Positions 5,578-45,211 are shown, counted from the first letter of the stretch. The stretch: DNA of 64,000 nt from Candidatus Omnitrophica bacterium CG11_big_fil_rev_8_21_14_0_20_41_12 (GCA_002796135.1 PCWB01000055.1:22109-86108); one strand, 5' to 3'. Notes: a model not told the origin generated them from the sequence alone. Program-made: numbers and translations.

Positions 5578-7164
5578 ATGATTAGAGTTTTAGTCAGTGA
5601 CGTATTGAGTGAAGAGGGGCTTAAAGTATTTAAGGACTCCAAAGAATTAACCGTTGATGTAAAAACAGATCTGAAGCCGGATGCTTTAAAAGAGATCATC
5701 AAGGATTATGATGGTTTGGTTGTGCGCAGCGCAACTAAAGTGACCAAGGAAATTATCCAGGCAGCTAAGAAATTGAAGGTTATCGGACGCGCAGGCGTTG
5801 GCCTGGATAACGTCGATTTAGCAGCAGCCACTCAGCATGGCATTATCGTCATGAATACTCCGTCGGGCAATACTATTTCTACTGCGGAACATACTTTTAG
5901 TATGATTTTGGCGTTGTCTAGAAATATCGCCCAGGCGAATTCCTCAATGAAGAAAGGGGAATGGAAGCGTTCTAAATTTATGGGTGTGGAATTATATAAT
6001 AAAGTTTTAGGTATCGTTGGTTTCGGAAGGATCGGCTCAGAGGTTGCCAAGCGGGCCCAATCATTCGGGATGAAGGTTAGAGCTTTTGATCCTTTTTTGT
6101 CCGCAAAGGTAGCCGAGAGTATTGGTGTTGAGATTGCGGAATTAAAAAAGATTTTAGAGGAATCCGATTATATTACCGTACACACTCCTTTAACCGATGA
6201 AACCAGGCACATGATTTCGGATAAAGAATTCGGTATGATGAAAAAAGGAGTGCGGATCATAAACTGCGCGCGTGGCGGAATCATCGACGAGGCTGCTTTA
6301 GCCAAGGCGGTAGCTGAGGGTAAAGTGATCGGGGCAGCCATGGATGTTTTTGAAAATGAACCGCTTGCCGCAGACAGCCAGCTTTTAAAACTGGATAATG
6401 TGATTACTACTCCGCATTTGGGTGCATCTACCGAAGAAGCACAGGTCAATGTAGCTATTGAGGTTGCTGAAATTGTGCGCGATGCTTTATTAGGAAGAGG
6501 GATCCGTAATGCCGCGAATTACCCCTGCTTAGATGCCGAGGCCTGCAAAATTCTTAATCCGTATATTAGTTTAGGAGAAAAATTAGGGATGTTTGCTGCG
6601 CAATTAGTAGAAGGCAGATTCCAGGAGCTAGTTATAAGTTACAGCGGCCAGATTACGAATTATGATTTAAGCCCGGTGACTATGTCTTTAGTTAAAGGGT
6701 TATTGACCCCGATATTAAAGGAAAGGGTTAATTTTGTTAACGGGATATCTTTACTTAAAGAAAGAGGGATTAAGTTGCTGGAATCAAAATCCGGCCAGGA
6801 AGGTGAATTTGTGAATCTTATTCAGTTAGAGATCAAAACAGATCAAGAAACTAAATCTATCCTGGGGACGCTCTCCGGTAATAAGCAGCCCAGGATTGTT
6901 AAAATTGACGATTATTATCTGGATTTATATCCGGTTGGAGAAATGATCTTTATTCGCAACCTGGATAAATCGGGCTTAATTGGTAACCTGGGAACATTGA
7001 TGGGCAAAAATAACATCAACATTGCTGCGATGGCTTTAGGCCGTAATCAACCCGGCGATAAAGCAATCAGCGTTTGGAGCGTAGATAATCAGGTTACTCC
7101 TGAGATCCAGGAGAAAATTAAAAAATTAGAAAATATTCTAACGGTAAAGGTGATCAGAACTTGA
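5578..7164 (+). CDS. serA: D-3-phosphoglycerate dehydrogenase, long form with ASB and ACT domains
   Basis: NAD-binding motif GIVGFGRIGSEVA and a 2-hydroxyacid dehydrogenase catalytic region. It is 528 aa, with a C-terminal ACT-like regulatory segment. Confidence 0.85.
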   Translation: MIRVLVSDVLSEEGLKVFKDSKELTVDVKTDLKPDALKEIIKDYDGLVVRSATKVTKEIIQAAKKLKVIGRAGVGLDNVDLAAATQHGIIVMNTPSGNTISTAEHTFSMILALSRNIAQANSSMKKGEWKRSKFMGVELYNKVLGIVGFGRIGSEVAKRAQSFGMKVRAFDPFLSAKVAESIGVEIAELKKILEESDYITVHTPLTDETRHMISDKEFGMMKKGVRIINCARGGIIDEAALAKAVAEGKVIGAAMDVFENEPLAADSQLLKLDNVITTPHLGASTEEAQVNVAIEVAEIVRDALLGRGIRNAANYPCLDAEACKILNPYISLGEKLGMFAAQLVEGRFQELVISYSGQITNYDLSPVTMSLVKGLLTPILKERVNFVNGISLLKERGIKLLESKSGQEGEFVNLIQLEIKTDQETKSILGTLSGNKQPRIVKIDDYYLDLYPVGEMIFIRNLDKSGLIGNLGTLMGKNNINIAAMALGRNQPGDKAISVWSVDNQVTPEIQEKIKKLENILTVKVIRT

Positions 7165-8888
7165 AAAAAATTAAAATTATATTATTTATTATTAGCCTAT
7201 TCTTTCTGCCGGCTCAAAGCTTGCGCGCAGAGAATGTAACTATTCTTTATACCGGCCAGACCCATGCGATGCTTTATCCCTGCAGCTGTCCTATCCGCCA
7301 GGATGGGGGAGTGGCGCGCAGAGCTACCCTGATTAAACAACTAAGAAAAAAAGATCCTCAGCTTCTGCTCTTAGATTGCGGTAATTTTAGCGCCGGTGGG
7401 TTGATGGACGAATATACTCAAAGTACCCAGCTCGATATGCAGCGTTCGGAAATTAACTTTAAGTCTATGGAGCTGATGCATTATGATGCCGTTGGTATTG
7501 GTTCCGATGAATTTAATTTCGGTAAGGATTTTTTCTTAAAAAATGCTAAAAAAACCGGACCGGCATATCTTAGCGCTAATTTAGGTGCGGATAAAGTATC
7601 TGCGTATATAATTAAAGATAGCCAGGGGGTGAAAGTAGGTATTATCGGATTAACCGACTTAGAGGCTCAGCAGAAAACCGAAGGATTAAAAATCAGTGAG
7701 CCTAAAAAAATTGACGAATTAATTAAAAGTTTAAAAAAAGAAAACGTTCAAATAATCGTTCTTTTAAGTACTTTAGGAGAGCAAAAAGATCTGAAGTTGA
7801 TCTCTGAAGTTAATGGGATTGACGTACTTTTTACCGGGCAAAATCCTTTGAAGGAGGATTCGCTGACTAAGGTTGATAATACTTTTCTTCTGCGCCCGTT
7901 TTGGCAGGGGCGCAAGCTGGGAAAATTAACCCTGGAAGTCAAAGACGGAAAACTTATCGATTGTAAAATCGAAGAATTACCCCTGTCGGATGAAATTCCC
8001 GACGATGCCGTAATTAGCGCGATTTTACCCCGCTGTTATACTGATAGTAATTGCAGAAAAGATGGCAGCGTAGGAAGCTGTCAGAATCCGGGAACGCTAA
8101 AATCACGCTGCTCATTCAAAGCGCTAAACAAGGTGGACCTGCTGATTATCACAGCCAAGGATTGTGCTGTATGCGATGAACAGCCGGTCATAGATTCGTT
8201 AAAGAAAAAATTTCCCGGTTTGGCGATCAAGTATCTTTATTATCCCGACCAAAAGGCGAAAAGCCGGATAGCAAAATTGTCGCTTCCCGGACTGCCGGCC
8301 TATATTTTTGGCAAAGAGATTGAAAAAGAAGAAAAATTTTCAGCTATGAAAAATGATTTTTTACAAGTTGCAGATGCTTATGTGCTTAAGCCGCAAATAG
8401 GCGGCCTGGCTTATTTTCCCGAACGAAAAATCAAGCCGGGGAACTTAGATTTATTTTTGAGCTTATTTGATAAAGATGCTGCGCAGCTATTGGCAGTTAC
8501 AGAAGAGTTTAAGCCCGGGTTACATTTTCTGGCCCAGGAAACCAATGATGGCTTTAGCGCCAAAGGTGGCAAGCTTGAGGTTGAGGAGTATTTGCGCGCC
8601 GCGTGTATTCAGAAATATTATCCGCAAGAATTTTGGAGCTATTTAACCTGCCGTGCCAGGAATATTAATAGTTCTTATTGGGAAGACTGTCTTGGCGGCG
8701 TTGATCAGGATAAGTTAAAAAGTTGCGCCAGAGGCCAGGAGGGAATAAATTTACTTAGAGAGAATATCAGTTTGAGTAATGAACTAAAGATTATGTTTGG
8801 ACCGGCGTATCTTTTAGATAACCGGGAGATTTTTTCTTCCAGAGGCGTTCCTCAAAAAGAAGAGCTTAAAAAAATATTAAAGAGGTGA
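7161..8888 (+). CDS. Secreted 5'-nucleotidase/metallophosphoesterase-like protein with degenerate metal ligands and a Cys-rich (CxxC) C-terminal region
   Basis: It has a signal peptide and a TTG start. The N-terminal half aligns in pattern to UshA/YfkN-type calcineurin-like phosphoesterases (ILYTGQTH.., DCGNFSAGG, GSDEFNFG), but the usual D/H/N metal-ligand residues are substituted. The C-terminal half carries CAVCDEQ plus further cysteine clusters. Confidence 0.45.
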   Translation: MKKIKIILFIISLFFLPAQSLRAENVTILYTGQTHAMLYPCSCPIRQDGGVARRATLIKQLRKKDPQLLLLDCGNFSAGGLMDEYTQSTQLDMQRSEINFKSMELMHYDAVGIGSDEFNFGKDFFLKNAKKTGPAYLSANLGADKVSAYIIKDSQGVKVGIIGLTDLEAQQKTEGLKISEPKKIDELIKSLKKENVQIIVLLSTLGEQKDLKLISEVNGIDVLFTGQNPLKEDSLTKVDNTFLLRPFWQGRKLGKLTLEVKDGKLIDCKIEELPLSDEIPDDAVISAILPRCYTDSNCRKDGSVGSCQNPGTLKSRCSFKALNKVDLLIITAKDCAVCDEQPVIDSLKKKFPGLAIKYLYYPDQKAKSRIAKLSLPGLPAYIFGKEIEKEEKFSAMKNDFLQVADAYVLKPQIGGLAYFPERKIKPGNLDLFLSLFDKDAAQLLAVTEEFKPGLHFLAQETNDGFSAKGGKLEVEEYLRAACIQKYYPQEFWSYLTCRARNINSSYWEDCLGGVDQDKLKSCARGQEGINLLRENISLSNELKIMFGPAYLLDNREIFSSRGVPQKEELKKILKR

Positions 8889-8892
8889 AAAT

Positions 8893-10131
8893 ATGGCAAA
8901 GAAACCGACAATCTATCTGTTAGATGTAACTAACCGGGACGGAGTGCAGACCTCCCGGATCTGCCTTTCCAAGCTGCAGAAAACCATGATCAACTGGTAT
9001 CTTGATCAGATGGGTATCTTTCAGTCTGAGTTCGGGTTTCCGCTTACTCATCATGAAACTAATTATCTCAACGCCAACCTTGAATTGGTTAAATTAAAAG
9101 CATTTTCGCGGATTAGGCTGAGCGGTTGGCTGCGCGCCACAAAAGGTGATGTGAAAACTGCGTTTAAGCTGGTTCCGGATTTGAAATACCTGAATCTTTC
9201 TATCTCTACCAGCGATCAGATGATACTTCATAAATTCAAAGGTAAACTTGATCATCAGTCGGTAATTAAGGAAATGCAAGAGGCTACGCATGAGGCTATA
9301 AAATTAGGGGTAGAATCCGTGGGGGTAAACGCGGAAGATGCCTCGCGTACGAATTTAGATTATTTAATCGAATTTGCCCTTAAGGCAAAAGAAGCAGGTG
9401 CTAAAAGAATCCGCTACTGCGATACTTTAGGATGCGATACTCCTTTTAGTATTTATGAAAGGATAAAATTGCTAGCTGAAGCAGTAAAATTACCTATTGA
9501 AGTACACTGCCATAATGATTTGGGCCTGGTGATCGCTAATTCCGTTGCCGGGGCAAAAGCGGCAAGTGATGCCGGAGTAGATTCCTATATTAATACCTGC
9601 GTAAACGGCATGGGTGAACGGGCAGGGAATGCGGATTTAGTTTCCGTAATATTGGCAATTAAATACGGCCAGGGGATGCAAGGGTATCAATTGGACCAGG
9701 ATTTAAACTTAAAGATGGCTTGGAAGATCTGTAAATATGCCTCATATGCTTTCGGAGTGCCGATTCCCATAAATCAGCCGGGTATTGGGGCAAATGCTTT
9801 TGCCCATGAATCCGGGATCCATGCCGACGGAGCGCTCAAGGACCGGCGCAATTATGAGCTTTATGATTATGAAGGATTAGGCCGCGGAGAACCTGAAATT
9901 ATCGAAACCGGCAGAAATATTACTGCCGGTGAATATTCCGGGATCAAAGGTTTCCGCAATGTTTATGAAAAATTAGAGGTGGTTTTTAAAGATGATCAGG
10001 AGGCTACGAAAATTTTAGAGCTGGTTAGATATGCCAATGTGCATAATCAGAAACCTCTGGTTGACGATGAGTTGAATTTTATCGCTAAATATCCGGATAT
10101 TGCGCATAAGATATTTACCATGACACCGTAA
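8893..10131 (+). CDS. DRE-TIM metallolyase family protein (isopropylmalate / homocitrate / citramalate synthase-like)
   Basis: N-terminal LLDVTNRDGVQ, in the position of the TLRDGEQ pyruvate-carboxyltransferase motif, and HCHNDLGLVIAN, in the position of the HxH metal site. It is 412 aa. Substrate cannot be assigned from sequence alone. Confidence 0.45.
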   Translation: MAKKPTIYLLDVTNRDGVQTSRICLSKLQKTMINWYLDQMGIFQSEFGFPLTHHETNYLNANLELVKLKAFSRIRLSGWLRATKGDVKTAFKLVPDLKYLNLSISTSDQMILHKFKGKLDHQSVIKEMQEATHEAIKLGVESVGVNAEDASRTNLDYLIEFALKAKEAGAKRIRYCDTLGCDTPFSIYERIKLLAEAVKLPIEVHCHNDLGLVIANSVAGAKAASDAGVDSYINTCVNGMGERAGNADLVSVILAIKYGQGMQGYQLDQDLNLKMAWKICKYASYAFGVPIPINQPGIGANAFAHESGIHADGALKDRRNYELYDYEGLGRGEPEIIETGRNITAGEYSGIKGFRNVYEKLEVVFKDDQEATKILELVRYANVHNQKPLVDDELNFIAKYPDIAHKIFTMTP

Positions 10132-11409
<1,278 letters not shown>

Positions 11410-11429
11410 GTACTTGCAGGACAAAACAC

Positions 11430-11458
11430 TTGACTAAGAAAATCAGGTATGTTATATT
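11430..11458 (+). promoter_or_regulatory. Sigma70-like promoter for the OmpA-family lipoprotein gene
   Basis: TTGACT (11430-11435), a 17-nt spacer, then TATATT (11453-11458). RBS AAGGAGAGG and the ATG at 11502 follow. Confidence 0.45.
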
Positions 11459-11501
11459 GATATTTCAAATAAAACAGGTTACCCAGCCAAGGAGAGGACA
11501 G

Positions 11502-12149
11502 ATGAAAAACCATTTTTTTAAAACCGCTTTAATTTTATTCTTAATTTTTAGCTTAGCCGGTTGTACTTTTATTTTTCAAAAAGGCAGGCGTTCCGATGCT
11601 CAAAGGATCGATGAATTGACTGCTCAACTGGATGAGCTTTCCCGCTCCAAGAGCTTACTTGAACAGAAGCTTGGCCGGGAGATAAACGATAAGCAGATCA
11701 AGCTCCAGATGATGGAAAAAGGCCTGGTGATCACCGTGGTCGGAGATCTTTTGTTTGATTCCGGAAAAGCCAAAATTAAGTCCGAGGCTTATCCCTTATT
11801 GGATAAAGTCTCCTCGGTATTAAAAGATAATATGGTGCAATTTAATGTAGGTATTGAAGGCCATACGGATAATGTTCCGATTACGCGTTCAAACTGGAAG
11901 TCGAATTGGGAGCTTTCTAGCGCCAGGGCATTGAGCGTTGTGCATTATTTAGCTACAGATCAGGGTATCTCTCCTGAGCGTCTTTCTGCAATTGGTTATG
12001 GCGAGTATCAGCCGGTTGCTTCTAATGAGACTAAAGATGGCCGTAAGCAGAATCGCAGGGTTGAGATTGTTATATTACCGAATGTTAAAAAAGTTAAAGG
12101 AAATTCTGCCGCCTCCTCTGAATCGGATTTTGAGGGAAATCTTAAATAA
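11502..12149 (+). CDS. OmpA/MotB-family peptidoglycan-associated lipoprotein
   Basis: Lipobox LAGC after a hydrophobic signal, a short coiled coil, and a C-terminal OmpA domain (GHTDNVPI.., NRRVEIVIL). The ORF-track start at 11430 is the promoter -35, so the start was moved to the in-frame ATG behind the RBS. Confidence 0.7.
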   Translation: MKNHFFKTALILFLIFSLAGCTFIFQKGRRSDAQRIDELTAQLDELSRSKSLLEQKLGREINDKQIKLQMMEKGLVITVVGDLLFDSGKAKIKSEAYPLLDKVSSVLKDNMVQFNVGIEGHTDNVPITRSNWKSNWELSSARALSVVHYLATDQGISPERLSAIGYGEYQPVASNETKDGRKQNRRVEIVILPNVKKVKGNSAASSESDFEGNLK

Positions 12150-12151
12150 GC

Positions 12152-12547
12152 ATGGAATTTAAGATGGGTGAGGCTTTAAAAAATCGTCTGGTAATAATTT
12201 TAGCGGTATTAACGGCAGTGTTTTTTTTCGGAACACTTAGTTCTTGTAATGGGGCGCTGCGTCAGAAAAAAGCCCGTGAGCAAGAAATGGCTTCACGGCT
12301 TGCTCTTGAAGAAAGTATGAGTAAGTTTTCCCAGGAGAAGTCAGCTTTAGAAGAAAAAGCTAAGGCTAAGGAAAAAGAGGCGCAGGAATTAAATGATGAG
12401 CTTGAGGCGGCCAAGAAAACTATAATTCAGAATCAGCTAGTTAACCAGAGCCTTAAGGAGGAGTTGCAAAAAGAAAGCAAACTCAAAGAAGCTCTGGAAG
12501 AGAATTTAAAGAAAGCTGTGGCAGAATCAAAGAAATTTAAAAAATGA
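12152..12547 (+). CDS. Coiled-coil lipoprotein, function unknown
   Basis: Signal plus lipobox (LSSC), then an E/K-rich heptad-like sequence. A terminator-like hairpin follows it. Confidence 0.4.
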   Translation: MEFKMGEALKNRLVIILAVLTAVFFFGTLSSCNGALRQKKAREQEMASRLALEESMSKFSQEKSALEEKAKAKEKEAQELNDELEAAKKTIIQNQLVNQSLKEELQKESKLKEALEENLKKAVAESKKFKK

Positions 12548-12594
12548 AATAGAGGGAGGCCACAGAAGAGCATCAAGCGTGTTTTTTTCTAAAA

Positions 12595-12624
12595 GGGGGA
12601 GATTATCCCCTTTTTTATTGGAAA
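12595..12624 (+). terminator. Intrinsic terminator-like hairpin with T-tract
   Basis: AAAAGGGGGAgattaTCCCCTTTTTT, a GC-rich short stem followed by six T and preceded by four A, so possibly bidirectional. It lies between the coiled-coil gene and the DUF4912-like gene. Confidence 0.45.
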
Positions 12625-18949: not shown

Positions 18950-20047
18950 ATGGAAATCAAAAGAAGAAAATCTAAAATTATAAAAATCGGTAAAGTCTCA
19001 ATCGGGGGGCTAAATCCTATCGCGATTCAGTCGATGACGAAGATTAAAACCTCTGATGTTGAGCGCACTGTGCGTCAGATTAAACAGTTGGAGTCAGCAG
19101 GTTGTCAGATTGTACGTCTGGCGGTTAAAGATTTCTCCGACGCAGCGGCTTTAAAGCAGATTAAGACTAAAACCAGGATTCCTTTAGTGGCGGATATCCA
19201 TTTCGATTACCGTCTGGCTATTTCCGCTATTGAAAATGGGGCTGATAAAATCAGATTAAATCCCGGGAATATCGATAAACCTAAACAGATCGAGGCGGTT
19301 ATTTGCGCGTTAAAGTCCGCAGGTATTCCTTTACGTATCGGATTAAATAGCGGTTCGCTAAAGGATTTGGGAAATAGAAAATCCTCAATAACTGATAAAT
19401 TGGTTGCTTCTTGCATGAATTACGTCCGGAAGATCGAGAAGCTTAAATTTGATAAAATAGTAATTTCGCTTAAAGCTAATAATGTTTTAGATACAGTTGA
19501 GGCGTATCGTTTGATGGCTAAGGCCTGCAGTTACCCTTTGCATCTAGGAGTTACTGCAACCGGATCCCCTTATAACGGGATTATTAAATCGAGCATTGCC
19601 TTGGGGGCTTTGCTATTGGAGGGAATTGGTGATACAATGAGGGTGTCTCTTACCGATAATCCGGTAGAGGAGGTAAGGGCAGCCGAGTGTATTTTGGAAT
19701 CTTTAGGCAAATCTCACCCGGCAGTCGGAGTAATCAGTTGTCCTACTTGCGGACGCTGCGAAGTAGATTTAATCAACGTGGTTAAAGAATTAGAAGCTAA
19801 ATTGGCCGGTGAAAAGTATAAACAAACCGGAGATTCTCTGAAAGTAGCGGTAATGGGATGTGTAGTTAACGGCCCGGGGGAAGCAAAAGAGGCTGATTTA
19901 GGGATAGCTTTTGGAAAAAACCACGGAATTTTATTTTCACGCGGTAAAATTGTTAAAAAGATATCGGTAAAAGATTCGGCGCGGGTTTTGTTAGAGGAGA
20001 TTAAAGCAAGGAGAAAAAAACATGGCTCAACAATCGCTAAAAAATAG
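18950..20047 (+). CDS. ispG: 4-hydroxy-3-methylbut-2-enyl diphosphate synthase (MEP pathway)
   Basis: GcpE pattern including C-terminal Fe-S cysteines (CPTCGRC..., GCVVNGPGE). Confidence 0.9.
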   Translation: MEIKRRKSKIIKIGKVSIGGLNPIAIQSMTKIKTSDVERTVRQIKQLESAGCQIVRLAVKDFSDAAALKQIKTKTRIPLVADIHFDYRLAISAIENGADKIRLNPGNIDKPKQIEAVICALKSAGIPLRIGLNSGSLKDLGNRKSSITDKLVASCMNYVRKIEKLKFDKIVISLKANNVLDTVEAYRLMAKACSYPLHLGVTATGSPYNGIIKSSIALGALLLEGIGDTMRVSLTDNPVEEVRAAECILESLGKSHPAVGVISCPTCGRCEVDLINVVKELEAKLAGEKYKQTGDSLKVAVMGCVVNGPGEAKEADLGIAFGKNHGILFSRGKIVKKISVKDSARVLLEEIKARRKKHGSTIAKK

Positions 20048-21284
20048 GGTTCGGGAAGATTTTATTTCCAAATATAGTAACATTTTGTTTAAAAGTGCTG
20101 GCAATAAGACTGAAGTTGCCTCGGTAGTCAGGAATATCCTTGAAGGGATCTTAAGCCAGCCGCGCGGCGTGCTCAAAGAGCAGGAGAGAGATAATATCAT
20201 CAACGAGCTGGTAGATGAATTCTCCGGATTTGGGCCGATCGAAAAATTAATGATGGATCCGGATGTAACCGAGATCATGATCAACGGCACGCATAATGTC
20301 TACGTAGAAAAGCACGGAAAAAAAGAATTATCGAATATGAAATTTGATAGTGATCAGCAACTGATGTATGTTATTCAGAAGATCCTCTCACCTACCAGAA
20401 GAAGAGTGGATGAGACGGTTCCATATACGGATGTTTGCTTGCCTGATGGTTCGCGAGTTAATATTATTATTCCTCCTTTAGCTTTAGACGGACCGACAAT
20501 AACTATTCGTAAATTCTTGAGAAAGATTGTTAAAGCCGAGGATCTTATTGAATTGGGGACCTTGGATAGAAAAATGGCGGATTTTTTAATTGCTTGTATT
20601 AAGGCCAAGATAAATATGATATTTGCCGGAGCTACCGGAAGCGGTAAAACTACCACTGTCGGAGTGCTCTCCAGCTATATTGGAAACGATGAGCGTACGA
20701 TTACCATTGAAGATACGGCTGAACTGCATTTAGCGCAAGACCATGTGGTTAGGCTTGAAAGTAAACCGCCGAATATTGAAGGAAAGGGCGAGATTTCCAT
20801 CAGGGATCTTTTTCGTAATACGCTGCGGATGCGACCGCAGAGAATTATCTTAGGAGAAATCAGAAGCGCTGAAGCCCTGGATATGCTTCAGGCAATGTGC
20901 TCAGGCCATAACGGAGCGCTTTCAGTTATTCACGCTAATACTCCCAATGAAGTTCTGCATCGGCTGGAAACAATGATCTTAATGAGCGGAGTTCCGATAA
21001 CCTTAGAGGCTATCCACCGCCAGATTGCATCGAGTTTGCATTTGATTATTCAGCAGGATCAGCTTGCCGATGGAACGCGCAAGATTACCCGGATAACTCA
21101 GGTCAACGGATTAAAAAACGGCTGGGTAAATTTAGAGGATCTTTTTGTTTATGAGATTACCAATGTTATTGAAGGCGGCAAAGTTTTCGGCCGTTTTAAA
21201 GCCACTGGGGTCCAGCCGGATTTTTATCCGCTTTTTGTCAAAAGAGGCGTAGCTTTATCTAAAGATATTTTTAATAAGGATTAA
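20022..21284 (+). CDS. CpaF/TadA-family type II/IV secretion ATPase (copy 1)
   Basis: Walker A (GATGSGKTT), an Asp box (ITIEDTAEL), a His box (MCSGHNG), and the CpaF-like N-terminal region. Confidence 0.7.
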   Translation: MAQQSLKNRVREDFISKYSNILFKSAGNKTEVASVVRNILEGILSQPRGVLKEQERDNIINELVDEFSGFGPIEKLMMDPDVTEIMINGTHNVYVEKHGKKELSNMKFDSDQQLMYVIQKILSPTRRRVDETVPYTDVCLPDGSRVNIIIPPLALDGPTITIRKFLRKIVKAEDLIELGTLDRKMADFLIACIKAKINMIFAGATGSGKTTTVGVLSSYIGNDERTITIEDTAELHLAQDHVVRLESKPPNIEGKGEISIRDLFRNTLRMRPQRIILGEIRSAEALDMLQAMCSGHNGALSVIHANTPNEVLHRLETMILMSGVPITLEAIHRQIASSLHLIIQQDQLADGTRKITRITQVNGLKNGWVNLEDLFVYEITNVIEGGKVFGRFKATGVQPDFYPLFVKRGVALSKDIFNKD

Positions 21285-21287
21285 TGA

Positions 21288-22532
21288 ATGTTCTGGACTA
21301 AAGCTTTTATACCGACATTAAAAGAAACGCCCAAAGAAGCAGAGTCGTTGAGCCATCAATTATTATTGCGTGCAGGATGCGCGCGGATGCTCATGGCTGG
21401 TGCTTATACTTATCTTCCATTGGGATTACGTGTTTTAGAAAAAATCCAAAGTATAATCCGTCAGGAGATGAATGCTTGTGGCGCTAGTGAATTACTTTTA
21501 CCGGCTTTACATCCCTTAGAGCTCTGGCAGAAGACCGGCCGGGATCAAGATATCGGTGAGGTAATGTTTAAATTCAAGGATCGCCGCGGCAGGAATGTTT
21601 GTTTGGGTCCGACACATGAGGAAGTGATTACGGATCTTGTAAAGAATAATTGTTCAACTTACCGGCAGCTGCCGTTGGTTTTATATCAGATCCAGACGAA
21701 GTTTCGCGATGAGATACGTCCGCGTTTCGGCTTAATCAGGGCTTGTGAGTTTATTATGAAAGATGCCTACAGCTTTGATCAAGATGAAGCAGGATTAGAT
21801 AAGAATTATCAGTTAATGTATGAAGCGTATAAACGGATATTCTCAAGATGCGGTTTAAAGACCCTGATTACCGATGCGGATTCCGGAGTTATGGGAGGAA
21901 AGGTTTCGCATGAATTTATGGCAGAAGCCCCGCTGGGTGAAGATATCGTATTAGTCTGCCCGAAATGTAAAACAGCTAAAGCTTTCAAAGAGGGCGATAG
22001 CCCTTGTTTTAAATGCCGGGTTGAGATGGACAAGATCAATACCATTGAAGTCGGCCATATTTTTAAATTGGGTACAAAATACAGCCAGGCGCTTGAGGCG
22101 AATTTCTCTGATGCTAAAGGGGAGCTGCGGCCTGTGGTTATGGGTTGTTACGGTATCGGCGTATCGCGCCTGGTTTCGGCGATTATCGAACAGAATAATG
22201 ATGCTGACGGAATTACTTGGCCTGGCGAGGTTGCTCCGTTTCAGATCATGGTTTTACCTTTAGATGTAACAAATCAAGCGATCATGCAGGAAGCACAGAA
22301 TTTTTATAATCAGATAAATGCCGCCGGGTTCTCCTGTCTTCTTGATGATCGTGATGAGCGCGCCGGAGTAAAATTTAAAGATGCGGATCTGATCGGATTG
22401 CCTTTGAGCATTGTGGTCGGCAAAAAAAATATTGAAGAAAAAAATATAGAATTAAGGATCCGTAAAGATAAATCAACCCAACTTGTGCCAAAGGAAGAGT
22501 TGGTAAAATTTATCTCTAAATTTTTAGCTTAA
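21288..22532 (+). CDS. proS: Proline--tRNA ligase (short form without the INS editing domain)
   Basis: Class II aaRS motifs and a ProRS anticodon-binding region. It is 414 aa. Confidence 0.8.
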   Translation: MFWTKAFIPTLKETPKEAESLSHQLLLRAGCARMLMAGAYTYLPLGLRVLEKIQSIIRQEMNACGASELLLPALHPLELWQKTGRDQDIGEVMFKFKDRRGRNVCLGPTHEEVITDLVKNNCSTYRQLPLVLYQIQTKFRDEIRPRFGLIRACEFIMKDAYSFDQDEAGLDKNYQLMYEAYKRIFSRCGLKTLITDADSGVMGGKVSHEFMAEAPLGEDIVLVCPKCKTAKAFKEGDSPCFKCRVEMDKINTIEVGHIFKLGTKYSQALEANFSDAKGELRPVVMGCYGIGVSRLVSAIIEQNNDADGITWPGEVAPFQIMVLPLDVTNQAIMQEAQNFYNQINAAGFSCLLDDRDERAGVKFKDADLIGLPLSIVVGKKNIEEKNIELRIRKDKSTQLVPKEELVKFISKFLA

Positions 22533-22546
22533 TTTACGAAAGGCAA

Positions 22547-23782
22547 GTGATGATGAATGCGCATTTACAGGCAGTAAAGGACGATATAATTAGTAAGCTT
22601 TCTGCAAGAGAGAAGGAATTTAAATTCGATTTTGCGCAAGGCAATTCCGTTGAATTCAAGCGAATAGTCGAATCAGCTTTTAAGGCGGTTATAAAAGAGG
22701 GCAAGATTGCGCTTAACCGTCAGGAGCAGGATGAGGTTTTGGGTGAAGTGATCTCTTATTTTATCGGAAGCGGCCCGATCGATGGTTTTCTGAGAGACCC
22801 GGAGGTTACCGAAATTATGGTTAATGGCCCCGGACAGATCTATATTGAACGCAAAGGGAATCTAGAGCTTACCGATGTTAGTTTTAAAAGCGAAGCCCAG
22901 ATTTTGCATCTTATTGAAAAAATAATTTCGCCAATGGGCAGAAGAGTTTCTGAGTTTGAGCCTTTTGTCGATGCCCGGCTTAATGACGGCTCACGGGTGA
23001 ATATCGTTAGGTCTCCGGTTTCCCGGATCGGCCCGCTATTGACGATTAGAAAATTTTCTTATCGGGTTTTGCATATGGATGATCTGATTAATTTAGGCAG
23101 TATTACGCCTGCGGCTGCTCAATTCTTAAAAGCTGCGGTTGAGTCTAGAATAAGCATATTGATTTCAGGCGGAGCCGGAACAGGCAAGACTACTTTTTTA
23201 AACGCCTTAATTGATTTTATTCCGGAGAATGAAAGATTGGTTACAATTGAGGATACCCGGGAGCTGATTATTTCAAAAAAGCATACAGTGCCGATGGAGA
23301 CCAGGCCTTTTAATATTGAGGGTAAGGGCCAGATTAGTATGCGGGATCTGTTTAAGAACGCTTTACATATGCGTCCGGATAGAATTATTGCCGGAGAGGT
23401 AAGGGGTGATGAGGTTTTAGAGATGATCCAGGCGATGAATACCGGCCATGAAGGCTCGATGACTACTCTGCACGCCAGCTCTCCACTAGAAGCTTTAGAC
23501 CGTTTAGAAATTTTGACTTTAATGGGTAGTAGCAATATGTCAAGTGAAGTGGCCAGGCGGCAGATTATCGGGGCCGTAGACCTGGTGGTTTATTTATCTA
23601 GATTTTCTGACGGCTCAAGAAGAGTGACCCAGATCAGCGAAGTAGTCAAGGCAAAAGAGTATTCTATCCAGGATATTTTTGTTTTTGATGAGGGTTCTGC
23701 GGTTCTTAAACCGGTTAATATTAAACCTAATTTTGCCGATAAATTGCGTAAAGCAGCTGGATATACGCTGCCAGGTTCTTAA
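22547..23782 (+). CDS. CpaF/TadA-family type II/IV secretion ATPase (copy 2, paralog of 20022-21284)
   Basis: Walker A (GGAGTGKTT), an Asp box (VTIEDTREL), and a His box (MNTGHEGS). By eye it is roughly 40-50% identical to copy 1 along the full length. Confidence 0.7.
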   Translation: MMMNAHLQAVKDDIISKLSAREKEFKFDFAQGNSVEFKRIVESAFKAVIKEGKIALNRQEQDEVLGEVISYFIGSGPIDGFLRDPEVTEIMVNGPGQIYIERKGNLELTDVSFKSEAQILHLIEKIISPMGRRVSEFEPFVDARLNDGSRVNIVRSPVSRIGPLLTIRKFSYRVLHMDDLINLGSITPAAAQFLKAAVESRISILISGGAGTGKTTFLNALIDFIPENERLVTIEDTRELIISKKHTVPMETRPFNIEGKGQISMRDLFKNALHMRPDRIIAGEVRGDEVLEMIQAMNTGHEGSMTTLHASSPLEALDRLEILTLMGSSNMSSEVARRQIIGAVDLVVYLSRFSDGSRRVTQISEVVKAKEYSIQDIFVFDEGSAVLKPVNIKPNFADKLRKAAGYTLPGS

Positions 23783-23792
23783 AAGGAAAACG

Positions 23793-24251
23793 TTGATCAA
23801 GGAAACTTTAATCAAAGAATTAAATGAATTAAGCTCTCAATGCGCAAGCAGAGAGAATGTAGAATTCGTTGATTTAATTTACCGTTATGAAGGCAACCGG
23901 TTGGTTTTGAGGGTTTTAGTTGACCGGCTGCAGGGCGGTATCACTTTAGGAGAATGCGCTTTATTCAACCGTCAGCTTAAAGGTCTTTTGGAAGAGAAAA
24001 ATATAATTGACGGTGATTATGTTTTAGAGGTTTGCTCCCCGGGACTTGATCGTAATCTTAAGACGCAGAAAGATTTTCTGCGCTGTATAAATAAAGAAGT
24101 AGTATTTTTTCTCAATGATTTAGCAGGCGGAAAATTACAGCAGCAGGGGATAATCAATAAGGTTGATGAGCATAGGGTAACTATTGAAAATTCGGGTCAA
24201 AGTTTAGAGATCCCGTTGATTAAAATAAACAAAGCACAATTAGCAATCTAA
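23793..24251 (+). CDS. rimP: Ribosome maturation factor RimP
   Basis: RimP-like sequence (…VEFVDL..YEG..LVLRVLVD…) immediately upstream of nusA. The start was moved to the TTG at 23793 behind an AAGGAAA RBS because the longer ORF overlaps the preceding gene. Confidence 0.65.
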   Translation: MIKETLIKELNELSSQCASRENVEFVDLIYRYEGNRLVLRVLVDRLQGGITLGECALFNRQLKGLLEEKNIIDGDYVLEVCSPGLDRNLKTQKDFLRCINKEVVFFLNDLAGGKLQQQGIINKVDEHRVTIENSGQSLEIPLIKINKAQLAI

Positions 24252-24271: not shown

Positions 24272-25540
24272 ATGAGTCAGGAACTACTTGCAATTATCGA
24301 ACAGATTGAACGTGAAAAAGGGATTAAAAAAGAAATTATGATTGAGGCTGTGGAGAGTGCGATGCTTAGCGCAGCTAAAAGAGTAATTGATTTAAAGCCG
24401 GATGAGGAGTTTAAGGTGCAGATTGACCGTGCCACCGGCCAAATTCACGCTTTTCGTAATAATGAAGAGGTGACCAATATTGATTTTGGCCGTATCGCCG
24501 CTTCTACCGCTCGTCAGGTGATTATCCAAAAAATGCGAGAAGCAGAGAAAGATGTAATTTTTGTTGAATTTCAAAGCCGTGTCGGTGAGATTGTCAGCGG
24601 AACGGTTTACCGTTTTGAAAAAGGCAATGTGATCGTTGATCTATTAGGTAAAGCCGAAGGCATCCTGCTTAAGCGCGAACAATCCCCTAAGGAGGAATTC
24701 AAGCAAGGCCAAAGGATCCGGGCTTATGTTGTTGAAGTGAAAAAAGATACCAAGGGCCCGCAGATTATTTTGTCGCGCATACATCTTAATCTGGTTAAAG
24801 AATTATTTGAACTTGAGGTTCCTGAGATCTATGAAGGAATCGTCGAGATCAGAGGGATATCGCGCCAGGCCGGGGAACGGACAAAGATATCGGTCTATTC
24901 CAAGAATGAAAAAGTGGATGCTGTAGGAGCCTGCGTTGGCATGCGTGGCAACCGGGTAAGAAATATTGTTAATGAACTGCAGGGAGAAAAAATTGATATT
25001 GTGCGTTTTAATGAAGATGTACGTGAATATATCAAGGCTGCTCTTTCTCCGGCTAAAGTTGCCGAAATTAAATTGGATCGGGATAAAATGAAGGCTGAAG
25101 TTATTGTCGATGATGATCAGCTTTCTTTGTCTATCGGTAAACACGGACAAAATGTTCGCCTGGCTTCCAGGCTTCTGGGTTGGGAACTGGATATCCGCAC
25201 GAAGAGCATGATTGCCGCTGAAGCCCTTGGTGGAAAAACAGAGGCTAAAGTCGGAGAAGTTAAAGAGGAAGCACCTAAAGATAAAAAAGCTAAAAAGGCA
25301 GTTAAGAAAACAACTAAAAAAGAAGTTAAAAAAGAAGCGAAAAAAACAACTAAAAAAGAAGGGGCTTCCTTAGAAGACCTTTCCGGATTAGGCGCCAAGG
25401 TTATCGAAAGCTTAAAAAGTGCAGGGATTAAAAGCATCAGTGGGATAGTTGAAGCCAAGGCTGAAGGATTAATGAAGATTAAAGGTATCGGAGAGAAGAA
25501 AGCTCAAAAAATTATTACGGAAGCTAAAAAACTATTATAA
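24272..25540 (+). CDS. nusA: Transcription termination/antitermination factor NusA
   Basis: NusA N domain, S1 and two KH domains, plus a C-terminal Lys-rich linker and HhH. Confidence 0.9.
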   Translation: MSQELLAIIEQIEREKGIKKEIMIEAVESAMLSAAKRVIDLKPDEEFKVQIDRATGQIHAFRNNEEVTNIDFGRIAASTARQVIIQKMREAEKDVIFVEFQSRVGEIVSGTVYRFEKGNVIVDLLGKAEGILLKREQSPKEEFKQGQRIRAYVVEVKKDTKGPQIILSRIHLNLVKELFELEVPEIYEGIVEIRGISRQAGERTKISVYSKNEKVDAVGACVGMRGNRVRNIVNELQGEKIDIVRFNEDVREYIKAALSPAKVAEIKLDRDKMKAEVIVDDDQLSLSIGKHGQNVRLASRLLGWELDIRTKSMIAAEALGGKTEAKVGEVKEEAPKDKKAKKAVKKTTKKEVKKEAKKTTKKEGASLEDLSGLGAKVIESLKSAGIKSISGIVEAKAEGLMKIKGIGEKKAQKIITEAKKLL

Positions 25541-25566: not shown

Positions 25567-27663
25567 ATGCCCAAAGTAAAAAAAGAAAAAACTGCGGTAA
25601 AAAAAATAACTAAGCCTAAAATCAAAGCTGTCATAAAAACTAAGAAGGTTTCTGTGGCTAAGGCCTCTGCTCCCAAGCCTAAAATTAAGGCTGTGGCTAA
25701 ATCGCTTAAGGCTAAGCCGGTAGTTAAAAAAGTCAAAGAAGAGATTAGGCCTGTAATCAAGCCTGTAAAGCCTGCAGCGCCTGAAATTAAAGTTGAGGTT
25801 AAGCCGGTAATTGAGCCTATTCATAGGCCCCATAAGCCGGAGGAAAAGCTTAAGACTGCTTCTCATGTTCAAACCGCTCCTGCTCCTGAAAAAGCAGAGG
25901 TTACTGCCAGCAAAGAGATTGAACTTGAACTGCCGATCAATGTTAAAGATCTGGCGATAAAATTACAGGAGAAATCCTCGGTTTTAATTAAACATCTTAT
26001 GAGCATGGGGGTAATGACCGGCATTAATCAGAGCCTGGATGAAGCGACTCTGAATAAGTTATGTTTAAAATACGATTTTAAAATTAAAAAAGCTCCTACA
26101 GCCGAAGAATTAATTTTACAGGAGCATAAAAAAATAGATAAACCCAAGGATCTTAAGAGTCGTAGTCCGATCGTTACATTTATGGGGCATGTCGATCACG
26201 GAAAAACTTCTTTACTTGATGCGATATGCAAAACTAAAGTTACTGAAGCTGAGCACGGAGGAATTACTCAGCATATCGGTGCTTACCGCGTTAGTTTCCA
26301 CCAGGGTGCGATTACTTTCTTAGATACTCCCGGTCATGAGGCATTTACCGCGATGCGCGCCCGCGGAGCAAGTATTACGGATATCGTGGTCCTGGTTGTC
26401 GCTGCCGATGACGGCATCATGCCGCAAACTCAGGAAGCCATTGATCATGCGCGTGCCGCAGGAGTAGCCATTATCGTAGCGATAAATAAAATCGATAAAG
26501 CGGGTGTAAATATTGATACGGTTAAAAAACAATTATCGCAGGTTGATTTAGCCGCTGAGGATTGGGGAGGAAAAACCATTACTGTGCCGGTATCCGCAAA
26601 AACCGGTGAAGGCATAGATACGTTATTGGAAATGATTTTGCTGCAGGCAGAAATCATGGAATTAAAAGCAAATCCTGACCGCTTGGCATATGGGGTAGTT
26701 GTTGAAGCTAGAATGGCTAAAGGCCGCGGACCGGTTGCAACTCTGTTGGTGCAAAACGGTTCTTTGAGCCTTAATCAAAATATTATTGTCGGTAATTTAT
26801 ATGGAAAGATCCGGGCAATGCTTGATGACCGGGGCCATGGAGTGACCAGCGTCGGCCCTGCTTCTCCGGTTGAGGTTTTAGGTATAACCGGTATCCCTCA
26901 GGTAGGAGAGCAGTTTTTTGCGATTGCAGATGAAAAAGAGGCAAAAAACTTGATTGCGGCACGTGCAGAAAAAGACAGGCAGCAGCAGGTTAAGGAGGTT
27001 AAGCGTATAAGCCTAGAAGACCTGCATGCCCAGATCGCCGGAGGTAAAATTAAAGATTTAAAATTAATTATCAAGGCGGATGTTCAGGGGTCGCTTGAGG
27101 CAATCAAGGATACTTTAGAGAAACTGAATGTCTCTGAAATAAAGATTAATATAATCCATATGGGGGCAGGCAATATCAATATCTCGGATGTGGTTTTAGC
27201 TATGGCCTCAGATGCGTTGATTTTAGGGTTTAATGTTACTGCCGATGTATTGGCTAAAGAGCTGATTGCCAAAGAAGGTGTTGAGTTAAAAACCTATAGT
27301 ATTATTTATGAACTGGCCAATGATATTAAGGCTGCGGTAGAAGGGATGCTGGCTCCTAAGTTAAAGAAAGTATTTTTAGGCAAAGTGGAAGTGCGGAAAA
27401 TGTTTAAGCTGACCCGTTCCGGTTTAATTGCCGGTTGCTATGTTACTAAGGGTAAGGTTAATCGTAATTGTATGGTTACGGTAATGCGCAATGGTGAGTC
27501 TGCTTTTGAAGGCAAACTTTCAAGCTTAAAACGTTTTAAGGATGATGTGCGTGAAGTGGGAGAAGGTTTTGAATGCGGTATTGCTATCGGCGGATTTGAC
27601 CAGTTAATGGAAGGCGATATCATCGAGGCTTACGATATTAAAAAAATAGCCAGAAAACTATGA
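25567..27663 (+). CDS. infB: Translation initiation factor IF-2
   Basis: G domain ([24 protein letters not shown]). The N-terminus is Lys/Pro/Val-rich and low-complexity. Confidence 0.9.
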
Positions 27664-42952: not shown

Positions 42953-43314
42953 AATTCGGTAAACTTGCCGAAAAAAAAGCAGTAGAGTTTTTAAAGGCAA
43001 ACGGATACAGGATCCGGCAGTGTAATTATAAAACTAAATTCAGTGAAATCGATATCATTGCCGATGACGGTAATACGATTTGTTTTATCGAGGTTAAGGC
43101 CAGGCATTCTCTTAATCTCGGGGGCCCGCTTGATGCGGTTTCCTTCAGAAAACAAAGGCAGATCGCTAAAAGCGCTATTGATTATTTAAAAACTAATAAT
43201 TTTTTAGAGCGCTTAAGCCGTTTTGATGTGCTTACGCTTTTATACACGGATGATCAGCCTGAAATATCTTTAATTAAAAACGCATTTGAACTTAACGCAA
43301 GGTTTACACTTTAA
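42934..43314 (+). CDS. yraN: YraN-family (UPF0102) endonuclease
   Basis: 126 aa with an …EIDIIA…FIEVKAR motif. The rplS-rnhB-yraN order is conserved. Confidence 0.75.
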   Translation: MSGKNIEFGKLAEKKAVEFLKANGYRIRQCNYKTKFSEIDIIADDGNTICFIEVKARHSLNLGGPLDAVSFRKQRQIAKSAIDYLKTNNFLERLSRFDVLTLLYTDDQPEISLIKNAFELNARFTL

Positions 43315-43318
43315 AACT

Positions 43319-43882
43319 ATGAATTGCAAAACTCAAAGCCTGACTAAATACTTAAACGATTTATCCGCTAAGCTGGCTGTTCCCGGCGGCGGATCTGCAG
43401 CGGCAATGAACGCGGCGATGGGTGCGGCGCTGATCAGTATGGTGATCAATTTTACTTTAGGTAAACCAAAGTATTCTAAAGATGAAGCAGGGCTTAAAGG
43501 AATTTTAAGAAAATCAGAAAAATTAAAAGATGATTTCCTGAATTTAGTTGATTTAGATGTTCTGGCCTATAAGAGCAGGGATAACCGCAAAGCTATGGAT
43601 GTGCCGTTGATGTTGGCAAGGCTTTGCTACGAAGGGATGCAGATACTGGCGCCTTTGGTCAACAAAACAAACTTGAATTTAATCAGTGATACGGTGATTG
43701 CGGCAATATTTTTTGAGTCAGCATTCAGCGCTTCCTGTTTTAATGTCCAGATAAATCTAAAAGCACTTAATGATAAAAAATTAAGTGTTGCCGTAAATAA
43801 AGAATTAAGCCTGAAAGCTAAATCCGTTAAACGGATCAGAGCCAAGATGGAGGCCAAAGTTGGCAAAATTATTAGAGGGTAA
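43319..43882 (+). CDS. Cyclodeaminase/cyclohydrolase-family protein (FTCD C-terminal domain-like; methenyl-THF cyclohydrolase-type)
   Basis: PGGGSAAAMNAAMGAAL signature of the FTCD_C family. It is adjacent to folD. Confidence 0.6.
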   Translation: MNCKTQSLTKYLNDLSAKLAVPGGGSAAAMNAAMGAALISMVINFTLGKPKYSKDEAGLKGILRKSEKLKDDFLNLVDLDVLAYKSRDNRKAMDVPLMLARLCYEGMQILAPLVNKTNLNLISDTVIAAIFFESAFSASCFNVQINLKALNDKKLSVAVNKELSLKAKSVKRIRAKMEAKVGKIIRG

Positions 43883-44702
43883 GCTTATCGCTGAAGAAAT
43901 AAAAAAAGAATTAAGTCTTACTGTGCAAACTTTAAAACAGCCTCCGGTTTTGGCCAGCATTTTAGTGGGAGCTGATCCCGGGGCGCTGGCGTATGTAAGG
44001 GGCCAGGAAAAAACTGCACAAAGTATAGGCATAACTTATAAATTGCATCAGTTGCCTGAGAGTATCTCCGAAGACGAATTAATTGATTTTATCCTTGGGC
44101 TTAACGCAGATAAAAATGTTAACGGTATCGTGGTGCAGATGCCGCTTCCTAAACACATAGATTATCGAAAGATCAGCGAGCTTGTTTCTGCAAAAAAAGA
44201 TATTGAAGGCATGCATCCGGCAAACATGGGCAAGGTGCTTTTTGGCCGCGCCAGGATCGCTGCCTGCACGGCAACTGCGGTTATGGAATTATTGAATTCT
44301 ACTGGTGTAGATCTATACGGCAAAGAGGTAGTTGTTGTCGGTCATAGTGAAATTGTAGGAAAACCGCTGGCGTTGTTGCTATTAGAAAAATTCGCCACGG
44401 TTACGGTTTGTCATATTGCTACTAGTAAAACAGACAGGCTAGAGGAGCATGTGCGCAGGGCAGAGGTTTTAATTGTCGCGGTCGGCAAACCCGGATTGAT
44501 CAAAGGTGATTGGATCAAAGACGGGGCAATTGTTATTGATGTGGGTATAAATTGCCGGGGCAATAAGATCGTCGGAGATGTAGAGTTTGCGGAGGCAGAG
44601 AAACGCGCCAGCTTCATCACTCCTGTTCCGGGAGGAGTAGGGCCGCTGACTGTCGCCATTTTAATGCGTAACCTGGTTGAAGCAGCCAAACTTCAGCAAT
44701 AA
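43860..44702 (+). CDS. folD: Bifunctional methylene-THF dehydrogenase / methenyl-THF cyclohydrolase
   Basis: FolD pattern throughout (…VQMPLPKHID…, GHSEIVGKP, PVPGGVGP). The ORF track gives a TTG start. Confidence 0.9.
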   Translation: MAKLLEGKLIAEEIKKELSLTVQTLKQPPVLASILVGADPGALAYVRGQEKTAQSIGITYKLHQLPESISEDELIDFILGLNADKNVNGIVVQMPLPKHIDYRKISELVSAKKDIEGMHPANMGKVLFGRARIAACTATAVMELLNSTGVDLYGKEVVVVGHSEIVGKPLALLLLEKFATVTVCHIATSKTDRLEEHVRRAEVLIVAVGKPGLIKGDWIKDGAIVIDVGINCRGNKIVGDVEFAEAEKRASFITPVPGGVGPLTVAILMRNLVEAAKLQQ

Positions 44703-44818
44703 ATAATTGTTAATATTTTGCTTTTGAGGTATTGAATTGGTTTTCACTCGTTGTGGTTGTATATCTTTCAAACAAAATATATATAGTTTAAAGCGGTGTT
44801 TGAAGGGGGGCTTTTGTA

Positions 44819-45196: not shown

Positions 45197-45211
45197 CTAG
45201 TACAATAGAGA

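Follow-up and report, generated by a model that had tools for sequence, protein, structure and literature searches.

Complementary arginine-finger losses in two CpaF-family ATPases encoded in an Omnitrophota housekeeping gene string

In the ATPase CpaF of Caulobacter crescentus, the ATP site is formed by the cis fingers R217 and R223, located in the N-terminal domain (NTD) of the same chain, and by the trans finger R347, contributed by helix 9 of the neighboring chain (PMC11300603, PMC12019362). R347 was reported as conserved throughout the type IV filament ATPases, and mutation of the equivalent residue in PilT abolished function (PMC12019362). In the CpaF model, each platform protein spans two adjacent subunits and makes contact either at Loop 8 and helix 5 or at the central loop; D208 of Loop 8 is a predicted, not solved, contact with the platform (CpaG/CpaH) (PMC11300603). 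Mutation of either contact blocked function (PMC11300603, PMC12019362). Mixed hexamers have been proposed for years for the PilT/VirB11-like family and type IV filament motors (PMC6711533); for the best-studied pair, PilT and PilU, the conclusion was that each forms a homohexamer (PMC6821130). Here, we describe a natural test case. A 64,000-nucleotide (nt) stretch of DNA from Candidatus Omnitrophica bacterium CG11_big_fil_rev_8_21_14_0_20_41_12 (GCA_002796135.1 PCWB01000055.1:22109-86108), referred to below as the window, encodes two CpaF-family ATPases, A1 and A2, among housekeeping genes. One subunit is without a cis finger and the other without the trans finger, and each is under selection across more than 100 sequence clusters.

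Arginine fingers and a possible mixed ring

Residues were counted in 142 sequences of the A1 clade, 128 of the A2 clade, and 67 CpaFs of other phyla, in alignments that were gap-free around the key residues (CpaF numbering). At the cis finger R217, the A1 clade never has Arg (81 Cys, 49 Ser, 11 Ala, and 1 Met), whereas Arg is present in 127 of the 128 A2-clade sequences and in all 67 other CpaFs. The trans finger R347 shows the reverse: it is retained throughout the A1 clade (142/142) and in 66/67 other CpaFs, and is replaced by His in every A2-clade sequence (128/128). The second cis finger, R223, is invariant in the three sets (142/142, 128/128, and 67/67). The complete set of three fingers is thus found neither in the A1 of the window, which has Cys139 at position 217, nor in its A2, which has His273 at position 347. 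A search seeded with A2 provided a further control. Among its best 150 representatives at 50% identity, comprising 167 scored domains with A1 and A2 of the window included, R217 is Arg in 161; the remainder are the window A1, one A2-like protein of Omnitrophota, and four gaps. R347 is Arg in 157 of these domains and His in five. Where other phyla have two CpaF copies per locus, both copies are canonical. The active-site defects of A1 and A2 are therefore complementary and clade-wide in two paralogues that are encoded together, with adjacency in nine loci and an analogous pair in a further locus (L090, below).

The platform contacts differ as well. D208 is retained in the A1 clade (142/142) and in 66/67 CpaFs of other phyla, and it is never present in the A2 clade (73 Ser, 53 Thr, and 2 Asn). 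The central loop E331-G-x-G334 is kept in all three sets. A1 thus has both platform-contact motifs and also the hinge glycines, and A2 has the central loop with Ser/Thr in place of D208. Positions that are otherwise invariant have changed further in each clade: in A1, these are G282A (P-loop), N371C, T380V, and R425Q, and in A2, T283A and A311R. At position 282, Ala is found in 140/142 A1-clade sequences as compared with Gly in 67/67 other CpaFs.

Apart from these residues, both proteins are intact CpaF-family ATPases. They match PF00437 (T2SSE) with E values of 1.6e-56 (A1) and 3.4e-52 (A2) and are 40% identical to each other over about 397 residues. Their closest solved relative is Caulobacter CpaF (8rkd/9e24), with 360 bits for A1 and 319 bits for A2, as compared with about 125–145 bits for FlaI and GspE2 and about 93–115 bits for VirB11 in the Protein Data Bank (PDB). 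AlphaFold2 (AF2) models gave predicted local distance difference test (pLDDT) values of 78.8 and 83.5, respectively. The fold comparison of the two models was topped by the CpaF structures 8RJF, 8RKD, and 9E24; the best match was 8rjf for A1 (template modeling score 0.76) and 8rjf/9e24 for A2. Both models contain a three-helix N-terminal bundle, an NTD, and a RecA-like catalytic domain, which is the minimal CpaF architecture, and no membrane segment was predicted in either protein. Walker A, Asp box, Walker B, and His box are intact, and the equivalents of K287, T288, E312, E357, R359, and H382 are invariant or nearly so in both clades. Full length, intact motifs, and confident folds rule out that either copy is a pseudogene. 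The best NCBIfam match of both is the TadA-family model TIGR03819, at 283 and 315 bits, below its cut-off of 373. Membership in VirB11/TrbB was ruled out by scores of 198/227 and 181/212 bits against cut-offs of 250 (TIGR02788) and 305 (TIGR02782), and membership in archaellum FlaI by scores of 182 and 205 bits against a cut-off of 550 (NF058587). A precomputed PF27713 (UCP018868) assignment is carried by nearly all A2-clade proteins and mostly not by A1-clade proteins; it was not reproduced with the Pfam copy used. By sequence, fold, and core motifs, A1 and A2 are CpaF-family members that depart from the family in their arginine-finger set and in their linkage to a tad locus, and their sequences predict soluble motor ATPase subunits of CpaF/TadA type, as in type IV filament (Tad/type IVc) systems.

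A shared ring would give the finger losses a simple meaning. The site on chain n would draw R217 and R223 from chain n and R347 from chain n+1. A1, having lost its own R217, would still offer R347 to its neighbor; A2 would use its own R217 and R223 and offer a His in place of R347. In a ring of alternating subunits, the three A2 sites would be complete (own R217 and R223 plus R347 of A1), and the three A1 sites would be without two of the three fingers. Two independent losses would thus converge on one class of site, as expected for a heteromer in which competent and degenerate sites alternate and not for two independent homohexamers. The presence of both platform-contact motifs in A1 and of the central loop only in A2 would be compatible with contacts spanning two adjacent subunits. 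We tentatively propose that A1 and A2 are Tad-type motor subunits for a machinery encoded elsewhere, most likely as a mixed hexamer; this seems possible, if somewhat short of probable. Its strictest version, a heterohexamer of obligately alternating A1 and A2, with three ATP sites complete and three crippled, that drives a Tad-like apparatus from a housekeeping operon in ultra-small, possibly predatory Omnitrophota, is doubtful. If it holds, the PilT/VirB11-like (type IV filament) ATPase family would gain its first natural mixed-subunit motor.

Other loci provide related arrangements. In L090, a contig of 1.19 Mb, an A2-like gene (His347, Thr at D208) is followed 30 nt on by a gene for a very divergent 449-amino acid (aa) T2SSE protein, in which R347 is kept, R217 is replaced by Glu, and the His-box region is altered. 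These two genes (10001–12619) immediately precede the housekeeping genes dnaX-recR, and no pilus gene was found within 10 kb of them. They repeat the complementary finger pattern independently, which fits a mixed ring. L064 is a tad-like locus (6373–12180) of an Omnitrophota metagenome-assembled genome (MAG), JBDRDJ010000004.1, which encodes RcpC, a secretin, a 722-aa TadZ(ParA/MinD)–CpaF fusion, and a 354-aa A1-like ATPase. The A1-like gene stands directly behind the canonical CpaF, and its product carries R217C, G282A, and T380V. This arrangement also fits a mixed ring, with the A1 type as a partner subunit. Over its 21 kb, the locus gave no match to a T2SSF platform gene. The secretin of L064 carries a TonB_C domain, a TadE/G-like protein is encoded after the A1-like gene, and a 481-aa open reading frame (ORF) with a weak transposase helix-turn-helix (HTH) match interrupts the tad locus.

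The ring shape itself has parallels. The PDB contains PilT-family hexamers in which conformations alternate with C3 symmetry ('ocococ'), a shape compatible with such a ring. Tandem CpaF modules, two to four per chain, were found in P0244 and P0246–P0252, for example in MBX7133547.1 (821 aa) of a Fimbriimonadaceae MAG. Their modules are mostly canonical, and the proteins are mostly singletons for which gene-calling artefacts are possible. They show that one ring can hold CpaF modules that differ from each other, not that A1 and A2 are such a case. In P0251, the Walker B, His-box, and finger residues are degenerate in both modules.

Ancestry, distribution, and rival explanations

An earlier note on this DNA, made from the window's sequence, had taken A1 and A2 for a duplication split by proS. 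A neighbor-joining tree of 114 sequences contradicts this. The syntenic A1 proteins form a single clade (bootstrap 81) and the A2 proteins a separate deep clade (bootstrap 97), with canonical CpaFs of Bacillota, Chloroflexota, Acidobacteriota, and other phyla nearer to A1 than A2 is. A1 is 44–54% identical to canonical CpaFs of other phyla and 40% identical to A2. The tree and the identities rule out a recent tandem duplication divided by proS, and because the two clades are separate and old, the pair did not arise by duplication at this locus. Sister to the A1 clade (bootstrap 64) is the short ATPase of the tad locus L064. The A2 clade spans 54–92% identity over more than 120 clusters. The heteromeric motor that the same note had listed among its possibilities gained specific support from the complementary finger loss; this support is indirect, and the ring remains our inference.

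A genome scan for A1 orthologues covered 17 syntenic species-representative loci of Omnitrophota, and about 28 syntenic loci were recovered altogether. All of them contain an A1 orthologue (46–94% identity) in the same gene run. Its usual place is between ispG and proS, and the position is kept where ispG (L085, L099) or proS (L069, in which rimP follows A1 directly) is gone. A2 occupies the proS–rimP gap in nine loci only: the window, L011, L012, and L091–L096. The last six were found via the contexts of A2 homologues and show the full A1–proS–A2–rimP order, with A2 identities down to 58%. Among the 17 scan loci, A2 is present in L011 and L012 only; in the other 15, proS is directly followed by rimP, save in L069 and in two loci, L021 and L023, where the contig breaks off within proS. 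A proS-anchored metagenome scan, with weak statistics, gave about five Omnitrophota-like loci among the matches listed; of these, L098 and L099 have A1 only, with rimP directly behind proS, and the more distant L100 and L101 are without A1. The ATPase–proS–ATPase order pointed out previously thus recurs in relatives, and the conserved unit is A1 alone. Across loci, conservation of A1 is on par with that of ispG, dxr, and proS; in L015, for example, the identities to the window are 63% (A1), 64% (ispG), 64% (dxr), and 69% (proS). Conservation of A2 falls somewhat below that of A1 and its neighbors (54–86% vs 56–94%). A1 is therefore an ancient constant feature, and A2 has been lost or relocated several times.

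Several observations weigh against the mixed ring. A2 is absent from the proS–rimP gap in the majority of relatives that have A1, namely in 15 of the 17 scan loci and in L097, L098, and L099; a close relative, L013, the A1 of which is 82% identical to that of the window, is among them. Loci with and without A2 are interleaved on the A1 tree, and no column of the A1 alignment was found to track the presence of A2. Being patchy and interleaved, A2 leaves two options for A1, which either works without it or has a partner encoded elsewhere. Two A2-like genes, in L177 and on the P0233 contig, have no second ATPase within 10 kb. The CpaF cycle is described as C2-symmetric (PMC11300603, PMC12019362), and strict alternation would place unlike subunits opposite each other. 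The PilT/PilU precedent within the family points to separate homohexamers (PMC6821130). The pocket of A2 is itself not pristine owing to the clade-specific T283A, and A311R (112/128) places an Arg inside the Asp box, beside the catalytic Glu, where it may compensate in cis and permit an A2 homohexamer. On the side of the machinery, Tad complexes are reportedly missing from some genomes of Profunditerraquicolaceae, a family that includes three of the relatives (PMC10066038).

The first alternative is that A1 and A2 form two separate homohexameric motors with different jobs, either extension vs retraction or high-force work on one machine, or service to two filament systems encoded elsewhere. 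The lost fingers would then merely tune speed or coupling. PilT and PilU, reported to be homohexamers that act in coordination (PMC6821130), provide the model, and the remaining catalytic residues are intact in both A1 and A2. Most relatives have A1 without an adjacent A2, with no feature of the A1 sequence that tracks its presence, and the extra Arg of A2 beside the Asp-box Glu might substitute for the missing finger in cis. A2-like genes also stand alone beside prepilin-like genes. In L177 (9456–11260), the A2-like ATPase gene adjoins a type IV prepilin-like gene (N-terminus MNKKGFTILE...), and its product is without both fingers, with Ser at R217 and His at R347; on the P0233 contig, an A2-like gene lies about 3 kb from a type IV prepilin-like gene. 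The neighbors in L177 include 391-aa and 264-aa ORFs, secreted-looking and of no family. Against two homohexamers, an A2 ring would be without the trans finger at all six sites, and the equivalent PilT mutation abolished function (PMC12019362). The finger losses are complementary rather than parallel, and the complementary pairing recurs in L090. A second motor would not be needed for retraction, since CpaF is described as bifunctional (PMC12019362). We consider two separate homohexamers rather unlikely.

The patchy, interleaved occurrence of A2 next to a universal A1 suggests another explanation. A1 may be the working motor, as a homohexamer or with a distant canonical CpaF, and A2 a dispensable accessory, regulatory, or slowly decaying paralogue that has been lost repeatedly. 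As a poorly catalytic subunit, A2 might cap, brake, or modulate the motor. Such a role would be in line with its lower conservation relative to A1 and the neighboring genes, with its loss of both a catalytic finger and a platform-contact residue, and with L064, in which the A1-like protein is paired with a canonical CpaF and not with A2. Decay is hard to reconcile with the age of the A2 clade and its 54–92% identity over more than 120 clusters. His347 in 128/128 sequences, together with the retention of the other catalytic residues, indicates purifying selection on a defined function, and the protein is full length with a confident fold. Overall, an accessory A2 appears improbable.

Partner genes and the setting of the locus

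Partner genes were sought by annotating the window twice, once with direct Pfam scans and once through contigs that encode identical proteins and have precomputed Pfam families. Looking up the exact proteins of the edge genes added about 9.3 kb of context upstream and about 10.7 kb downstream. No ORF of the window matched T2SSF (TadB/TadC), secretin, RcpC, TadZ, peptidase A24, or Flp in Pfam, and the same families were not found in the two flanks. A tad locus just outside the window was ruled out: one flank contains only genes for lipopolysaccharide, 3-deoxy-D-manno-octulosonate (Kdo), and glycosyltransferases, and the other only trp, argS, and recJ genes. Intergenic room is too small for a hidden gene, the largest gap being 200 nt and filled by rpmE. 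The 575-, 131-, and 125-aa ORFs were considered as a hidden platform or pilin and rejected, none being GspF-like polytopic or prepilin-like (Pfam E ≤ 1, hydropathy); the 117-aa ORF was ruled out by its precomputed Pfam record and hydropathy, without the E ≤ 1 scan. The linkage to a tad/cpa locus that characterizes the CpaF family is therefore absent over the 64-kb window and about 10 kb on each side. The description in the earlier note stood up in these respects: two full-length CpaF/TadA-type ATPases (PF00437, CpaF as best relative, core motifs intact) flank proS inside a housekeeping run, with the ORFs and neighbors as described, and no pilus or secretion partner is encoded in the window or within about 10 kb outside it. 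The two findings that it had named as fatal, a tad locus just outside and a pseudogene copy, were both looked for and neither was found.

The relatives UBA6253, UBA6233, QZM4_1.bins.76, and UBA2593 belong to the class Velamenicoccia, order Gygaellales (PMC10066038 Table S1), and the genome of the window is assigned to Velamenicoccia as well. TadBC together with RcpA were found in 74/116 Velamenicoccia species (PMC10066038). In Omnitrophota, cassettes for the type II secretion system (T2SS), type IV pili (T4P), and Tad have been described adjoining giant genes. No description of the conserved A1 insertion was found in the Omnitrophota literature searched. We favor a GspF-fold platform encoded elsewhere, on the evidence of the A1 contact residues, hinges, and bundle, the 44–54% identity to CpaFs, the tad-locus sister of the A1 clade, and the prepilin-like neighbors of A2-like genes. 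A1 and A2 would then act on that platform and on a pilin set, both encoded elsewhere in the genome.

The surroundings of the pair raise one more alternative, namely that A1, with A2, was recruited to a non-pilus role, which could be the translocation of proteins or nucleic acids or a task linked to translation or envelope biogenesis. This would explain the fixation of A1 in an isoprenoid/translation string as well as the absent Tad partners. The place of A1 among housekeeping genes is stable over deep divergence, even where ispG (L085, L099) or proS (L069) has moved, and its evolutionary rate is housekeeping-like; no partner lies within about 84 kb, and the Tad platform genes are patchy in the class (PMC10066038). 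In the window and in about 10 kb to either side, every substantial ORF lies on the + strand, and most of them overlap or are less than 20 nt apart. With near-uniform orientation and minimal spacing over 84 kb, the neighborhood tells little about the function of A1 and A2. Moreover, A1 keeps D208 (142/142), the E-G-x-G central loop, the hinge glycines, and the three-helix bundle; it is still 44–54% identical to ordinary tad-locus CpaFs, and its closest non-syntenic relative lies in a tad locus (L064). Retention of the CpaF platform-contact residues favors a platform elsewhere over a new non-pilus function, which we regard as very improbable.

The gene order reads uppS-cdsA-dxr-rseP-ispG upstream of A1 and rimP-nusA-infB-trpS-scpA-ruvB downstream of A2 (Table 1). 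Along ispG–A1–proS–A2–rimP, the spacings are −26, 3, 17, and 10 nt. No excess of promoter-like or terminator-like matches was found along the string, and in the absence of any Rfam match, RNA elements or terminators that would divide it were ruled out. From the tight co-directional packing, ispG-A1-proS-A2-rimP-nusA-infB is probably co-transcribed and hence constitutively expressed, and the housekeeping setting probably reflects constitutive co-expression more than function. The A1 protein is identical to PIQ90113.1 (100% identity). The co-orientation of genes is extreme, extending over at least 84 kb, and the GC skew is positive across the whole window (0.09–0.23). Locus-based tools such as TXSScan score Tad by co-located genes and may miss a motor gene that lies among ispG, proS, and rimP. 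Missed motor genes could skew the inference of which Omnitrophota lineages have adhesion or predation machinery.

Table 1. Features of the window, with positions counted from its first nucleotide
Feature	Position	Strand	Remarks
ispG (GcpE)	18950..20047	+	PF04551, E 4.8e-132; 3' end overlaps A1 start by 26 nt
A1 (ATPase1), CpaF-family ATPase, 420 aa	20022..21284	+	PF00437; between ispG and proS
A1 Asp130	20409..20411	+	D208 equivalent, retained
A1 Cys139	20436..20438	+	R217 position, cis finger lost
A1 Walker A GATGSGKTT	20628..20654	+	Ala at G282 position; K287, T288 intact
A1 Arg269	20826..20828	+	R347 equivalent, retained
proS, 414 aa	21288..22532	+	PF00587 + PF03129; NF006625 589 bits in two stretches; starts 3 nt past A1 stop
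A2 (ATPase2), CpaF-family ATPase	22550 (ATG, 410 aa) or 22547 (GTG, 411 aa)..23782	+	PF00437; in proS–rimP gap
A2 Ser134	22949..22951	+	D208 position, acidic residue lost
A2 Arg143, Arg149	22976..22996	+	R217, R223 equivalents, retained
A2 His273	23366..23368	+	R347 position, trans finger lost
rimP	23793..24251	+	PF02576, PF17384; TTG start 10 nt past A2 stop
nusA	24272-25540	+	Gene calls on identical contigs
infB	25567-27663	+	Gene calls on identical contigs
ORF, 575 aa	7161-8888		No Pfam family at E ≤ 1
Wood-Ljungdahl cluster	43286-48631		
Transposase-like ORF, 419 aa	48761-50020		

The remaining content of the window comprises housekeeping, queuosine, Wood-Ljungdahl, tryptophan, and envelope genes and one transposase-like ORF. 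The prolyl-tRNA synthetase (ProRS; 21288-22532) encoded between A1 and A2 is of the short bacterial type. Its match to the 559-aa model PRK09194 falls into two stretches, which indicates that the INS editing insertion is missing, and it scores 500 bits against the short-form model PRK12325, just under the cut-off of 550. The 575-aa ORF has a signal-peptide-like N-terminus and is Cys-rich; its position between serA and a homocitrate/isopropylmalate-synthase-like gene is conserved. The Wood-Ljungdahl cluster contains genes for an FTCD_C-like cyclodeaminase and folD, a 125-aa ORF without family that has three transmembrane segments, a methylenetetrahydrofolate reductase (MTHFR)-like gene, and the gene for the beta subunit of acetyl-CoA synthase/carbon monoxide dehydrogenase (ACS/CODH; 849 aa, N-terminal CODH_A_N domain). 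The transposase-like ORF, with weak HTH_28/HTH_23, rve_3, and DDE_3 matches, sits between the ACS/CODH beta subunit gene and a tetratricopeptide repeat (TPR) protein/polA and is the sole mobile-element-like gene in the window.

Comparison with known systems

Caulobacter crescentus CpaF (TadA; 8RKD, 8RJF, 9E24) is the best sequence and fold match for both proteins. A1 and A2 share its three-helix bundle, NTD, catalytic domain, and core motifs and are without its disordered N-terminal tail. The central loop E-G-x-G is common to all three, and the Loop-8 Asp is shared by A1. CpaF is a single-gene homohexamer encoded inside a cpa/tad operon with platform genes, whereas A1 and A2 are two diverged genes in a housekeeping string, A1 without R217 and A2 without R347 and D208.

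Within the phylum, the tad locus L064 is the nearest comparison, and for L064 itself the Tad locus of V. archaeovorus LiM, cited in PMC10066038, can be set beside it. The A1-like ATPase of L064 shares R217C, G282A, and T380V with A1. It differs in being short, in having no three-helix bundle, in the additional loss of D208 and E331, and in its place behind a TadZ–CpaF fusion, beside RcpC and a secretin. The window encodes an A1 of full length with its platform-contact residues retained, and genes of that kind are far away.

PilT/PilU (and PilB) of type IVa pili are likewise paralogous PilT/VirB11-like ATPases, and the accessory paralogue there depends on the main one. PilT and PilU both keep their arginine fingers. 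The A1/A2 pair shows reciprocal finger loss, and PilT and PilU were concluded to be homohexamers (PMC6821130).

After CpaF, the next-best structural relative of A1 and A2 is FlaI. In the archaellum, FlaI works with FlaH, an ATP-binding partner that hydrolyzes ATP poorly. FlaH is KaiC/RecA-like, forms its own ring, and is not a paralogue of FlaI; the FlaI/FlaH pair is in this respect unlike A1/A2.

In the alpha3beta3 (A3B3) ring of F1/V1-ATPase, paralogous RecA-fold subunits alternate, and with them catalytic and non-catalytic sites, and the degenerate substitutions gather on one class of interface. The superfamily branch and the mechanism differ from those of A1 and A2, and the A1/A2 ring is putative; by analogy, the logic that we propose for A1 and A2 would be the same.

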